From Malacoraja senta (taxonomy: Eukaryota): a stretch of DNA of 64,000 bases. Numbering within the stretch: position 1 is the first letter of the stretch; each line of letters starts with the position of its first letter. A model generated the notes under the pieces. It saw nothing but the letters and a program-made list of their open reading frames with translations, did not search any database and was not told the DNA's origin. The position numbers and the translations under genes are program-made. Shown one piece after another: positions 925 through 63,879 of the stretch. Where the stretch lies: the NCBI GenBank assembly GCA_038087875.1, contig CM075992.1, forward strand, positions 6,388,001 through 6,452,000, read 5' to 3'.

Positions 925-1510
925 CGGGATTGGCAGCATCTCTGGAGAGAAGGAATGGGTAACATTTCGGGTCGAGACCCTTCTTCAGACCAAAGATACT
1001 AGAGGAGCAATCTTTGCTTCAGACTGAGAGTCAGGGAAGAGGGAGTCTAGAGATATGGATTCAAGTAGCAAGGTGTAGAAACAAGGAACTGCAGATGCGG
1101 GAGTAACTCAGCAGGTCAGGCAGCATCTCTGGAGAACATGAACAGGTGGCGTTTCGGGTCGGGACCCTTCTTCAGGCTGATTGTTGAGGCATCTTGGGGG
1201 GAAGAAAGCTGGGAGAGAGGAGAGGCAGACAAAACCGTGGCAGGTGATGTGGGGGGGGGGGGGGGGGGTGATAGCAGATGGTTGGAACAAAGGACAGAGA
1301 TGAAAACAACAGAAGGTGTGAGACAAAAGGATTGAAGAGTTGCAAATCGTGAAGCCAGGAGGAAGGAATTACGTGGGTGAAGAGGGAGAGGAGGGGGAGA
1401 AATAGGTGTGAGCCCAGGTAGGGGACAGGGATGGGGGGTGAGGAAGGTGAGGTGTGGGGGAGAAAGGGTTTTAATTCCTGACCTCCGCCCCACCGAGATA
1501 CTCCAGCACA
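925..1510 (-). mobile_element. Penelope-derived fragments with hammerhead-like cores
   Basis: Minus-strand CTGAAGAAGGGTC(T/C)CGACCCGAAA motifs at about 958-991 and 1146-1179, next to the purine-rich segment also seen in the 28340-28905 copy. Confidence 0.65.
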
Positions 1511-1715
1511 TTGTGACTTCATCAGCCAGAGCAGTCCTGACCTCCCATCTACCTCATTGGAGACCCTTGAACTCTCTTTAATTGGACGTTATCGGACTGT
1601 ATCTTGCTCTGAATGTTGTACCCGTTATCCATTACCTGCGCACTGTGGATGGCTTGATTGTAGTCTTCTATTTGACTCGAGTGGTTAGCATGCAAACAAA
1701 AAGTATTCACTGTAA

Positions 1716-2012
1716 AGCCCCTGTCCCACGATGCGAGTTCACCCAAGAGCTCTCCCGAGTTTAAAAAAAACCCAAACTCGTGGTACTTCATCACGAGTAT
1801 TTTTTTACTCTTGGAAATTTTTCACACTGTTGAAAAACGTCACGAGTTTCCGCGTTTCCCGAGTACCTACCGTGAGCATTACGAGCCGCTACGAGACATC
1901 CACGAGCTCCGACGTACCCGCTACGTACGTTCTACGTACTTACCACGAGTTTGATTTTTTTTTTAAACTCGGGGAGAGCTCTTGGGTAAACTCGCATCGT
2001 GGAACAGGGCCT
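1716..2012. mobile_element. MITE with long TIRs, PIF/Harbinger-like (family copy 1)
   Basis: About 70-bp imperfect TIRs AGCCCCTGTCCCACGATGCGAGTT...AACTCGCATCGTGGAACAGGGCCT with TAA/TTA flanks; CpG-rich interior. Confidence 0.8.
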
Positions 2013-2470
2013 TTAACTAACAATAAACTATAATAAAGTATTCACTGTAAACAACTCTAAGCTAAGCTAAGCTAAGCTGCAATAGGAAGGAACTGTAGAT
2101 GCTGGTTATGGCAAAGAGAGACACAAAGTGCTGGAGTAATTCAGCGAGTCAGGCAGCATCTCTGGAGAAAATGGACAGATTACATTTCGGGATGGGACTG
2201 AAGAAGGGTCTTGACCGGAAAAGTCATCTATCCTTTTTCTCCTGTCTGACCTGCTGAGTTACTCCAACATTTTGTGTCTAAGTAAGTAAGTAAGTAAGTA
2301 AGTTTATTGGCCAAGTATTCACATACAAGGAATTTGCCTTGGTGCTCCGCCCACAAGTAACAACATACAGTATACAGTTACGAATGACTCAGAAAAACAC
2401 TAAACATTAATAATAATAAAACATTAATGATAAAACACCATTGATCAAGCATGTGAACCTATCTTTTATA

Positions 2471-2880
2471 TCTAGTTGCAAGACATTAACATCGGGATAT
2501 GATCCCTGCCCCAGTAAAGCAATAAGACTTTCTTCAAAATATGTCCCTTACCAAACTCTCAGTTCAAATAACAATTTCCTTGTAGTCACATTGAAACCCC
2601 AGCTATTGCCCAATGCTGCACCCCTTTCTAGCTCAATTCACTCAGCTACTGTATTAATAACCAGCTGATTCATATATCGAGGACTTTGTTTGAGGTAGTG
2701 TGGTTGCTAAATGTTCAAACTCTGAGTGATAGTCAACAACACCATACTCAGAACCCAAGCAGAACACAAAACGCTGGAGGAACTCAGCGGGTCAGGAAGG
2801 AAGTGGACAGGTGACGTTTCAGGTTGGGACCCTTCTTCCGACCGATGGAGCGGGGGGGGGGAGAAAACTGGAAAAGGAGC
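2471..2880 (+). repeat. Left arm of an inverted duplication (partner 5390-5806)
   Basis: CAGCTGATTCATATATCGAGGACTTTGTTTGAGGTAGTG here is the reverse complement of CACTACCTCAAACAAAGTCCTCGATATATGAATCAGCTG near 5575-5612; similarity continues across about 400 bp. Confidence 0.85.
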
Positions 2881-3230
2881 TGGGGACCTGTAGGACCTAC
2901 AAACCTGCACGTCTTTGGAGTGTGGGAGGAAACCGGAGATACCAGAGAAAACCCACGCAGGTCACGGGGAAAACGTAGTAACTCCGTACAGACCGCACCC
3001 ATAGTCAGGATCGAACCCAGGTCCCCTGGCGCTGTAAGTTAGCAACTCTGCCCGCCCACTCTTTCAGTTATTCTGTCGTGCAGCTGCAAGTAAGAATGTC
3101 ATTGTTCTATCTGGGACATATGACAATAAAACACTCTTGACATGAATCTTGTCTTGACTGGCCAGGCTTTGTCCCGTCCCCAACTATTTTCTAGCTTCCT
3201 TGAATTCAGTCTAAAGAAGGGCCCAACAGA

Positions 3231-60937: not shown

Positions 60938-61064
60938 GCAGTAGGCTGGCACAAGACTGCTGCGTGTTCCTGCGATGCCCTCTGTGCCAGGAGGAGTTGA
61001 AGCGAGGAGATGTCCAGCAACACCTTCAGCAGGAACTGGAGCGACTCTCGGCCCTGCAGCCCAG
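60938..61064 (+). CDS. rnf220-like: RNF220-like exon (phase 1 to 2): SRLAQDCCVFLRCPLCQEELKRGDVQQHLQQELERLSALQP
   Basis: Acceptor TGTCTCCGCAG|, donor CAG|GTCTGT; CPxCQxxL...HxxQELExL resembles RNF220 CPICQVLLRPSELQEHMEQELEQL (recalled). Confidence 0.75.
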
Positions 61065-61854
61065 GTCTGTACCAGGGCTCCAGCCCAGCTCCACTCACCC
61101 CGAGTCAATGATTCAATTATTCCTTATTGTCCCATGTACCGAGGTACAGTGAAATGCTTCGTACAGTGTCCGATGTACTGCCCCACTCCCCCACTGCTGG
61201 GTTCCCCCTTCATTCTTGGCAGCCCCCCTCACGCTCCAATGGCCCCCCTCACTCTTCGATGGCCCCCCTCATTCTCCGACGGCCCTCCTGGCTCTCTGAG
61301 AAGGCAGGAACGGGGGGTACTGACTGGTGATGAACAACCATGATCACATTGAATGGCGGTGCGAGCTTGAAGGGCCGAATGGCCTACTCCTGCACCTATT
61401 GTCTATTGACCCTCCTCCCTCTCTGACAGACCTCCTCACTCTCGACCCTGTCTATTCCTCGCGGAATTTTACACACTTTCACCCAATCTCACCTCGGTCT
61501 CCGATACTCCAGAGCAAACAATCCAAGTGTGTCCAACCTCTCCTTGTAGAAATGCCCTCTTATCCAGGCATCATCTTGGTAAACCCCTTCTCCAAAGCCT
61601 CCACATCTATCCCGGAATGGGGCAACCCGAACTGTACATAACACCCCAAATACCTCCAGTCTAAAGCTGCAACATGACTTCCTGACTCTTGTACTCATTG
61701 CCCTGACCGATGAAAGCAAGCTTTCCAAACGCCTCCTTCACCACTGTCAGGAAGGTTGGAACTTCCATCGGGACGAGGGGTGAGGAAGAAAAGTGAGGTG
61801 TCATTCTCCAATGTATTCCTGAAAACCAGATTAAACCGGGCTTGTTTCTTTCAG

Positions 61855-61903
61855 CTGCGAGAAGGAGCTACTGTACGAGAGCACGTCACAGCAACCGGCA
61901 TCG
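61855..61903 (+). CDS. rnf220-like: RNF220-like small exon (49 nt, phase 2 to 0): CEKELLYESTSQQPAS
   Basis: Acceptor TTGTTTCTTTCAG|, donor TCG|GTAACA; bridges the phases of the flanking exons with no stop. Confidence 0.65.
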
Positions 61904-61914
61904 GTAACAATAGT

Positions 61915-62570
61915 TCCTCTCTCTCTCCCTCCCCCTCTCCCTCTACCCCTCCCCCTCCCCCTCCCCCTCCCCCTCTCCCTCTCTCTCCCACCCCCTCCCC
62001 CACCCCCTCTCCCTCTCTCTCCCTCTCCCTCCCTCTCTGTCTCTCCCTCCCTCTCTCTCTCTCTCCCTCTACCCCTCCCCCTCACCCTCTCCCTCTGTCT
62101 CTCCCTCTCCCTCTCTCTTTCTCTCTCTCTCTCCCCCCCCCCTCTCTCTCTCTCTCTCTCTCTCTCTCTCTCTTCTCTCTCTCTCTCTCTCTCTCTCTCT
62201 CTCTCTCTCTCTCTCTCTTTCTCTCTCTCTCTCCCTCTCCCTCTCCCTCTCCCTCTCTCTCCCTCTACCCCTACCCCTCCCCTCTCCCCCTCCCGTTTCC
62301 CTCTGTCTCTCCCTCTCTCTCTCCCACTGTCTCTCCCTCTCTCTCCCTCTCCCTCTACCCCTCCCCCTCACCCTCTCCCGCTGTCTCTCCTTCTCCCTCT
62401 GTCTCTCCCTCTCCCTCTGTCTCTCCTCTCCCTGTCTCTGTCTCTCCCTCTGTCTCTGTCTCTCCCTCTGTCTGTCTCTGTCTCTGTCTCTGTCTGTCTC
62501 TGTCTCTCCCTCTCCCTCTGTCTCTCCCTCTGTCTCTCCCTCTGTCTCTCGATCTCTGTCTCTGTCTCTC
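61915..62570 (+). repeat. CT-rich polypyrimidine tract
   Basis: (CT)n, CCCTCT and CTGTCT units. Confidence 0.9.
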
Positions 62571-63879
62571 CTCACTTCTAGAGATCGGGCATCGCTCAGT
62601 CTATAGTTATAGGCAGCATGCTAGAGCCACTGCCTCATGGTGCCAGAGCCCCGGGTTCGATCCTGACCTCGGCTGCTGTCTGTGTGGGTGCGGATTTTGC
62701 ACGTTCTCGCTGTGGAACGCGTGGTTTTCCTCCGGGTGGCTCCGGTTTCCGCCCACGTCCCACAGACGTGCGGGTTTGAAGGATAATTGGCCCTCTGTAA
62801 ATTGCCTCTGGTGCGTAGGGAGTGATGAGAAAGGAAGAGGAACATCGGGACTGTGTTGAATACTTTTCTAACTTTGTCCGTGCCCTTTAGGTGGCCACTC
62901 TTTGCATTCTTGTGTATTGAATGCAAAGCTAAGAATCTCACTGTACCAAGTACATGTGACTGTAAAATATATCAAAACTGGTGTGAATGGTTGGCATGGA
63001 ATCGATGGGCCGAAGGGCCTGTTTCCATGCTCTATCTTTAAACTGAATGATTGACTGACCTGGTTTTTTTTTTTGCATTAGTATTTTGGTTATTGATTTA
63101 TTGATTTATAATATGTTATTGTCTGTGCAGTATTGTGCTTACAGGCGTGTTATGCCGCTGCAAGTAAGAATTTAAATGTCCCGTTGTTGGTACATGTGAC
63201 ATTAGAACACTCTTGTCTCTCTTGAAGTGCCAATGGTAGAAATATCTAATGTGTAGGAAGGAACTGCAGATGCTGCTTTACACCGAAGATAGACACAAAG
63301 TGCTGGAGTAACTCAGCGGAACAGGCAGGATCTCTGGAGAGAAGGAATGGGTGACGTTTCTTTCTGAATCCTTTCTTCAGCCTTACTTTCAGTCTGAAGT
63401 AGGGTCTCGACCTGAAACGTCACCTATTCCCCCTCTCCAGAGATGCTGCCTGACCCGCTGTTACTCCAATATTTTGTGACTATCTTCGAAATTCCTTCCT
63501 ATTTCATTGCGTTCTCGCTCTCCCCAATCCTGAAGCTGTCCACAGCCGGATTTTATAATCAAACTAATCTCCTCTGCCTGAATGTGATCCATATCCTCCC
63601 CTCCCCCGGCATATCCACGTACCTATCTAAAAGCCTCTTAAATGCCACTATCGTGTCCGCCTCCACCGCCACATCTGGCAGTGCGTTCCAGGCCCCCACC
63701 GCCCTCTGTGTAAGAGAAGGAATGGGTGACGTTTCAGGTGGAGACCCTTCTTCAGGCTGTCTGAGCTAGACTAGTTAGTTGGGCCACTTGGCTGTGCCAA
63801 GCACCATGGAGCGTGAGGGTCGGAGAGAGTTGGCGATCTTTGGGATGTGGCCGCACTGACTCATCTTGTCTCTCCACAG

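Follow-up and report, generated by a model that had tools for sequence, protein, structure and literature searches.

A window of 64,000 nt from the skate Malacoraja senta (assembly GCA_038087875.1, contig CM075992.1, positions 6,388,001-6,452,000 of the forward strand; all positions below are counted within the window) is scattered with copies of a repeat unit of about 130 nt, whose 5' edge is a minimal hammerhead ribozyme motif. We hold it very probable that this unit is the 5'-truncated 3' end, or pseudo-long terminal repeat (pLTR), of skate Penelope-like elements (PLEs), decaying neutrally and predicted not to cut. Besides the anatomy of the unit itself, the window displays head-to-head pairs of copies, an optional tail, target duplications, the end of a reading frame upstream, decay at CpG sites and copies that span the cut site. 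The copies are best read as decaying PLE 3' ends rather than as a separate family of active ribozymes. An earlier note, made from the letters of the window, had described a Penelope derivative bearing a ribozyme motif; the match to the published consensus of minimal hammerhead ribozymes (min-HHRs), the inverted pairs, the tail, the target duplications and the endonuclease-like frame end support this view.

The repeat unit and its copies

Where the earlier note counted more than 20 copies of a motif of about 34 nt, a 28-nt motif matched at 30 places with up to 5 substitutions allowed; 20 dinucleotide-block shuffles gave 0 matches each. All nine plus-strand and nine minus-strand sites that it had named were found again, the copy at 22033 ending before the GUC triplet. 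The motif is therefore real as a repeat, but it is merely the 5' edge of the unit of about 130 nt, which continues for about 100 nt beyond the cut site. A profile search of the repeat returned 59 segments (30 plus, 29 minus) between 923 and 63758, and 0 on the reversed window. These segments group into 37 loci, cover 5,219 of the 63,600 called bases (8.2% of the window) and diverge from the family majority sequence by a median of 12% (range 4-31%). The repeat had also been called the commonest short one of the window, which holds by segments (59 vs. 39 for a family resembling short interspersed nuclear elements, SINEs) but not by bases, where it comes second (8.2% vs. 11.5%). The unit carries frame-shifting indels, has no constant open frame and ends, on its 3' side, in neither poly(A) nor a simple repeat.

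In the most consensus-like copy, on the plus strand, the hammerhead (54282..54315) is followed by the repeat body (54316..54383), the first 15 nt or so of which are predicted to pair with the core and the 5' strand of stem II in a competing hairpin, and by the optional 3' extension of about 30 nt that corresponds to a PLE "tail" (54384..54411). It is preceded by a pyrimidine-rich part of the pLTR or 3' untranslated region (UTR) of subfamily A (54152..54281), homologous to 53114-53195 on the minus strand. Two minus-strand copies of subfamily C have a long upstream UTR, one at 28343..28762, which is 71% like 1197-1473, and the other at 1093..1473, followed by 923-1073 in partial tandem. A second subfamily, with the cut triplet GUU and a 3-bp stem I, is represented by a solo minus-strand copy at 17035..17145, whose flanking 10-nt duplication lies within the null range. 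At 54693..54892 (plus strand), four tandem pieces of the unit body, each of about 49 nt and without hammerhead, form a minisatellite-like array; a two-copy piece at 5820-5915 resembles the 49-nt unit of this array. Separately, an inverted duplication of about 400 nt (2474-2890 and 5300-5802) holds one copy of the repeat and is about 91% alike over about 280 nt beyond the unit; either a local inversion or a subfamily whose 3' extension is long could account for it.

Anatomy and conservation of the hammerhead

PMC4209133 gives four traits of PLE min-HHRs: consensus families, a base between positions 9 and 10.1, the pair G10.1-C11.1 and a palindrome at 15.2-16.2. All four are found here, together with the CUGANGA core and the NUH triplet described there. 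The family majority sequence holds the CUGANGA and GAAA core, the NUH triplet, the extra base between 9 and 10.1, G10.1-C11.1 and the palindromic 15.2-16.2. In the copy at 54282-54315, stem I is formed by 54284-85 and 54314-15 (2 bp), followed by CUGAAGA (54286-92), the extra A (54293), stem II (54294-97 with 54302-05, 4 bp and a 4-nt loop), GAAA (54306-09), the palindromic CG (54310-11) and U16.1 (54312). The predicted cut falls after C54313, the position already given in the earlier note. Stem I is short and stem II has 4 bp: in the main subfamily stem I has 2 bp, whereas the helix I of the motifs presented in PMC4209133 ranges from 2 to about 6 bp and is mostly of 3-5. The CAGT/ACTG pairing reported at 5420-5455 is indeed present, but the copy with this best stem I (5420) has no palindrome.

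Few copies are intact. All core letters are kept in 17 of 42 copies, the core and the four stem II pairs in 13, and the palindrome as well in 8. The most variable positions of the hammerhead are its CpG sites, including required ones: C11.1 is retained in 26 of 44 copies, C15.2 in 32 and G16.2 in 30. CpG columns, which include C11.1, G12 and the palindrome, change at 24%, and 60 of the 86 CpG changes are of the deamination type. N7 had been proposed as one of the main variable positions; the CTGACGA variant at 14989 does exist, but N7 is an A in 31 of 36 copies and the CpG sites vary most.

We then compared core and flanks over aligned columns only. Non-CpG core positions have changed in 6.0% of cases (20/331), against 11.1% in columns 33-95 (Fisher P = 0.003; per-column test P = 0.15). 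Against columns 52-84 (7.6%), the core is no better kept (P = 0.41). The expectation of a core more conserved than its flanks is thus partly borne out in the first comparison and fails in the second, and the core is stable across subfamilies, though not uniquely. Among 30 Rfam matches at E ≤ 5, no hammerhead family appeared, just sub-threshold hairpin matches. In 25 copies, stem II is paired in 92% and stem I in 76%, with a single two-sided change and no excess of covariation over shuffles; since the copies are decaying, covariation is not expected, which limits this test.

Inverted pairs, tails and target duplications

PLE insertions, as described in PMC8557442 and PMC3846280, carry an inverted 5'-truncated copy at their 5' end, most commonly head-to-head, with a tail of 30-40 nt at one end. 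Among the 22 pairs of adjacent segments in the window, 11 are head-to-head, 10 tandem and 1 tail-to-tail (11 vs. 1, P = 0.006). The head-to-head pairs lie at 2083..2280, 6615-6843, 7487-7708, 10301-10559, 13136-13321, 25478-25705, 53986-54133, 55760-55925, 57649-57848, 60053-60269 and 63253-63489. The 3' ends of the copies fall into two classes about 30 nt apart, and 24 of the 59 segments have the long end, i.e. the tail. In the head-to-head pairs, the tail is on exactly one arm in 9 of 11 cases and on both arms in none (binomial P = 0.025; permutation P = 0.057).

Target duplications of 15-17 nt flank 3 of 42 locus definitions, the null maximum being 12 in 280 random pairs. The pair at 25478..25705, with a tail on one arm, is bounded by a perfect 17-nt duplication (25460-76 and 25697-713). 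A composite insertion of three segments (10162..10553) and a solo minus-strand copy that starts at the hammerhead core (32178..32304) each have a 15-nt flanking duplication with one mismatch. From these duplications, the inverted pair and the three-part composite each represent one insertion. Small inverted pieces of tail end and unit (10162-10173 and 10432-10474) stand directly 5' of two hammerheads within this same duplication-bounded composite, and suggest several template jumps within one insertion.

Other arrangements involve neighbouring elements. At 12819-13321, a tail piece, a 255-nt fragment of an L1/Tx1-like reverse transcriptase (RT) and a head-to-head pair follow each other in a row, either through insertion into a long interspersed nuclear element (LINE) or through capture of a LINE between pLTR pieces. 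In addition, 5 of 24 SINE 3' ends have a segment of the hammerhead repeat within 45 nt, where about 5% would be expected at random, and 4 of them meet the 3' end of the unit. These joints (7477/7487, 16992/17035, 28155/28134, 53981/53986 and 60048/60053), of a kind also present in many contigs of sequencing run X1, suggest insertion of the repeat into the A-rich tail repeats of SINEs.

Upstream sequence and frame end

Upstream of the hammerhead, a pyrimidine-rich sequence of at least 23 nt is shared with another copy in 6 of the 31 copies that reach C3. On the minus strand at 53252..53278, a reading frame of the element comes to its end with NIDFSNFK-stop, likely the C-terminus of a GIY-YIG endonuclease; this piece is itself repeated in related genomes. 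The conserved frame, which stops about 200 nt before the hammerhead, has a PLE-like E...N spacing. A second, more decayed remnant (28862..28890, minus strand) lies about 450 nt upstream of the hammerhead at 28437. The two are identical at 20 of 29 positions, the second being the best non-self match to the first on both strands of the window, and both are located upstream of hammerheads on the same strand. Elasmobranch PLE proteins are known to end in a motif of this kind.

Searching with the translation of the unit, we retrieved the ENA record P0122, a single off-frame run through about 75 upstream codons, the frame end, the UTR, the hammerhead and the body, with 35 of 56 positions identical to the window's frame. 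Record P0133 has the unit and then the same upstream piece as P0122 (40/54 identical). Of 13 differences between the two records, 10 are single changes that fall on third codon positions in the NIDFSNFK-stop frame, a bias that is a sign of past coding constraint. PMC8557442 lists R, H, E and N as catalytic residues beyond the GIY-YIG core; the residues allowed in the frame, which is bounded and not read, fit R, H, E and a terminal G-x-N/D spacing. In a comparison by eye with the endonuclease end of Naiad-3_Dst, as shown in the PMC8557442 supplement, 12 of 20 positions were compatible in one register (3.3 expected, P = 6e-6). Compatibility barely separates the -1 frame (48/51) from the +1 frame (45/51). 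On this strong if indirect evidence, the upstream frame is likely the C-terminus of a PLE GIY-YIG endonuclease. Of the link to Penelope RT and GIY-YIG elements on which the first proposal depended, the endonuclease part has gained this frame end, and no RT was seen.

Other searches added little. DNA pattern scans of viral, metagenome and prokaryote contigs, a plasmid blastn and a scan of the P0122 locus gave no match, as expected for shark or skate DNA. Nor did the frame-end piece, translated in its alternate frame, match any protein in a search, and an Atlas search with residues 30-125 of P0122 gave no usable hit. A representative protein search returned 15 proteins, three of them long, repetitive and unrelated and 12 spurious translations of the hammerhead repeat without Pfam matches. 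Record P0121, in which the repeat is joined to a piece of APE-type endonuclease, was rejected as a parent and is read as an insertion into a LINE.

Related genomes, RNA and predicted activity

Part of the region 52900-54420 is present in 20 of 23 listed sequencing runs, from 13 studies. Over 53130-54420, both the contig run X1 and X23, a raw poly(A) RNA run from another organism, reach their greatest depth over the unit. The depth, about 14,500 for X23 in the bin 54318-54361, drops to about 590 in the near UTR and to about 320 at the frame end; this steep fall fits 5' truncation, with the caveat that the unit gathers reads of all subfamilies and the UTR those of one. Head-to-tail joints of units, leading from 54375 back to 54281-83, were counted in 41-43 contigs of X1. 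In X23, no pile-up of molecule starts or ends was found, and the two strands are equally represented among the reads. This is a weak test, as X23 is a single poly(A) library, made from another species and consisting largely of read-through; the raw DNA run X22 gave 0 reads, so that X23 has no DNA control from its own species, and contig run X15, presumed to be RNA, was left out of the account of expression. A splice site at the AG preceding the core was also considered and rejected: no joint or loose end among the alignments listed supports it, and many short copies keep that AG.

We next considered the activity of the copies. When 13 copies were folded in a 55-nt context, 11 had a hammerhead fold 1.0-7.6 kcal/mol less stable than the best one; in a longer context the hammerhead was less favourable than the best fold in all 13. 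The best fold is mostly the hairpin in which the core pairs with the nucleotides that follow the cut site; this hairpin is paired at 87% across copies, likewise without covariation. Intact motifs on the same strand are at least 1,567 nt apart, and those of head-to-head pairs are on opposite strands, so that cis dimers are unlikely here. The cut site is spanned by 43 of the 59 segments and none begins within 3 nt of it, which matches the use of unprocessed RNA as insertion template, as seen in vitro in the work reported in PMC11167929. On these observations, the copies of the window are unlikely to cut and are predicted to be mostly inactive. The earlier note had called activity uncertain; this caution was well placed and should be stronger, given the few intact copies, the CpG decay, the competing hairpin and the absence of starts at the cut site.

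Candidate mechanism

By analogy with the anole PLE Poseidon_Ac (PAc) and other PLEs, a GIY-YIG/RT protein would nick the target. Two start sites for reverse transcription, separated by about 30 nt and located about 70 and 100 nt beyond the cut site, would give copies without and with a tail. The RT would usually stop or fold back near the 5' edge of the hammerhead, leaving solo or inverted short copies, and would rarely reach the UTR or the endonuclease end. The templates would be uncleaved RNA. The ribozyme may cut solely in the tandem transcript of the parent, as a dimer through the ACGU palindrome, and this cutting would probably be helped by protein, as reported for the anole element.

About 38 of the 59 segments have their 5' end in the interval from about -19 to +15 relative to C3: 25 of these belong to the 31 copies extending to C3, and 13 start in columns 7-19. 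This count is possibly inflated by unrecognised UTR variants. The three duplication-bounded copies have their 5' ends within about 6 nt of C3. One explanation is that transcription may start at TCAGT, at the 5' edge of the hammerhead, a word that we call initiator-like (Inr-like) with respect to the initiator consensus. PMC3846280 also notes an Inr-like word in a pLTR. Another explanation is that the RT may stall at the fold. A bolder and tentative idea, to which we give limited credit, is that the short copies may be a mass in vivo record of the PLE cycle, with two RT starts, run-off or fold-back at the transcript start and a hairpin that holds the ribozyme until a protein refolds it. If this were true, one of the most abundant skate repeats would be made up of PLE products of a strong-stop-like kind, and what the hammerhead does in PLEs could be tested directly by tallying copy ends across the genome.

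Alternative explanations

Several observations weigh against reading the unit as a truncated PLE end. The asymmetry of the tails is borderline by permutation (P = 0.057), and a target duplication of at least 13 nt is missing at 39 of the 42 locus definitions. No RT was seen linked to the repeat in the window copies, P0122 or P0133. No Pfam family matches P0122 or P0133, because their coding frame is merely bounded and not read, and the GIY-YIG and CCHH motifs were not seen. The core, better kept than columns 33-95, might moreover reflect selection in the source lineages. An independent family of non-autonomous retrozymes or SINEs, cycling through ribozyme-cut circular RNA and merely mobilised by PLE proteins, would account for the short and similar length of most copies and for the head-to-tail joints of X1, and PLE-derived retrozymes, including those of one chondrichthyan genome, are described in bioRxiv 10.64898/2026.07.22.740005. 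We nevertheless judge it improbable: the window has no tandem array with a hammerhead in every unit, its sole array (54693-54892) being without motif; the copies are not permuted at the cut site, where none of the 59 starts; the UTR and frame end become progressively rarer, as 5' truncation would produce; and the retrozymes of PMC7229834 mostly have canonical type I motifs. Active ribozymes retained by the host, cutting the transcripts of nearby genes, seem very improbable. Such a role would suit the 17 of 42 copies with all core letters and the abundance of the repeat in the poly(A) RNA of a relative (X23), but required positions are among the CpG sites that decay fastest (24%), covariation is absent, 11 of 13 copies have a predicted fold more stable than the hammerhead, no two intact copies on one strand are closer than 1,567 nt, and X23 has neither a read-end pile-up nor a strand bias.

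The palindromic loci could also be miniature inverted-repeat transposable elements of a DNA transposon, with hammerhead-like letters incidental to them, and 11 loci are indeed short inverted repeats, some with target duplications. However, their arms are unequal, with differing inner break points and the tail on one arm, most loci are solo, the duplication length varies (10-17 nt) and a coding remnant lies upstream on the same strand; we find this reading extremely improbable. The same low credence goes to an ordinary LINE or SINE whose 3' end would match the hammerhead by chance. The Rfam search without hammerhead, the stem I of just 2 bp in the main subfamily and the fact that the motif is not the predicted best fold speak for such a chance match, whereas the match to the PLE consensus extends to eleven core letters, the G10.1-C11.1 pair, the extra base and the palindrome, the 3' end has no poly(A) or simple repeat, and inverted pairs with an optional tail are PLE traits.

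Comparison with known systems

The skate copies resemble the min-HHRs of PMC4209133, which are mostly dispersed single motifs from truncated PLEs, with dual motifs on opposite strands. About 4,000 are given there for coelacanth and about 9,000 for Xenopus, mostly single, so that thousands of dispersed motifs per genome are known for coelacanth, Xenopus and fishes. In the same source, the min-HHR monomer tested did not cleave, and its dimer and trimer cleaved at a low level. A chondrichthyan motif is absent from its 56-motif alignment and from two of its supplement files, as searched by term. For PAc, PMC11167929 describes protein-assisted cleavage, uncleaved RNA as template and no RNA-seq ends at the cut site. 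As in the skate family, the hammerhead of PAc precedes two alternative 3' ends by about 100 nt, the template is uncleaved and RNA-seq ends are absent from the cut site (for the skate family, in a poly(A) run from another species), but its open reading frame (ORF) starts at stem II, whereas the skate unit has no constant open frame.

With the endonuclease-bearing (EN+) Penelope elements of Adineta vaga and other animals, as described in PMC3846280 and PMC8557442, the skate family has in common head-to-head pLTRs, an optional tail of about 31 nt on one arm, variable target duplications, partial tandems and an initiator-like word in the pLTR. It differs in that nearly all insertions are cut down to about 100-270 nt and are dense, with 37 loci in 64 kb. 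Animal non-LTR retrozymes, as described in PMC7229834 and bioRxiv 10.64898/2026.07.22.740005, are likewise short non-coding repeats with a type I hammerhead and kinship to PLE pLTRs, whereas the window has no hammerhead-bearing tandem arrays, a minimal motif and nothing that points to unit-length cleavage. In sharks, PLEs have already been reported (bioRxiv 10.1101/443036), and retrozymes together with PLEs were found in one chondrichthyan genome (bioRxiv 10.64898/2026.07.22.740005).

Our literature search, outside of which lay preprint supplements, Repbase and Dfam, found no description of this skate family or its hammerhead, and an existing annotation is quite possible. Since PLE min-HHRs, inverted pLTRs and tails are already published, the skate family adds one more case to an established kind of element. 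With it, the known range of PLE minimal hammerheads comes to include skates, where their density is very high, and a major repeat missed by Rfam receives its correct label; the family brings neither a new type of ribozyme nor a new type of element. The many dated insertions with exact 5' and 3' ends provide material on where PLE RTs start and stop and on hammerhead cutting in vivo, two questions left open by PMC11167929 and PMC8557442.

Genomic surroundings

The sole intact gene found in the window is a single ORF of the bZIP class (22682-23953, plus strand), similar to NFIL3 member 6, with no copy of the repeat inside. It is 85% identical to an NFIL3-like protein of Amblyraja radiata, 78% to that of Rhinoraja longicauda and 54-65% to those of other rays and sharks, which by itself assigns the window to a skate or a close relative. 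A short RNF220-like zinc-finger exon lies at about 60973-61060 on the plus strand (Pfam PF15926, E = 2e-4, below the cut-off), and ARAGORN reported no tRNA gene in the window.

The rest of the window consists largely of LINE fragments, the SINE-like family, Tc1-like pieces and microsatellites. The SINE-like family, of about 315 nt with a tRNA-like head (39 segments, e.g. 7166-7477 and 53657-53981; 11.5% of the window), presumably resembles the V-SINEs of elasmobranchs. At 29216-30827, the RT-like 3' end of a LINE forms a long inverted duplication whose arms are 94-97% complementary. An AT-rich L1/Tx1-like element with long open frames (42114-44273, minus strand), possibly recent, has an inverted second copy at 37137-37697 that is 94% alike. 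Finally, near-identical pairs of SINEs recur with their flanks in 34264-37943 and 46213-47606 (40905 with 47285; 34264 with 46213 and 36307), which suggests local segmental duplication or assembly redundancy.

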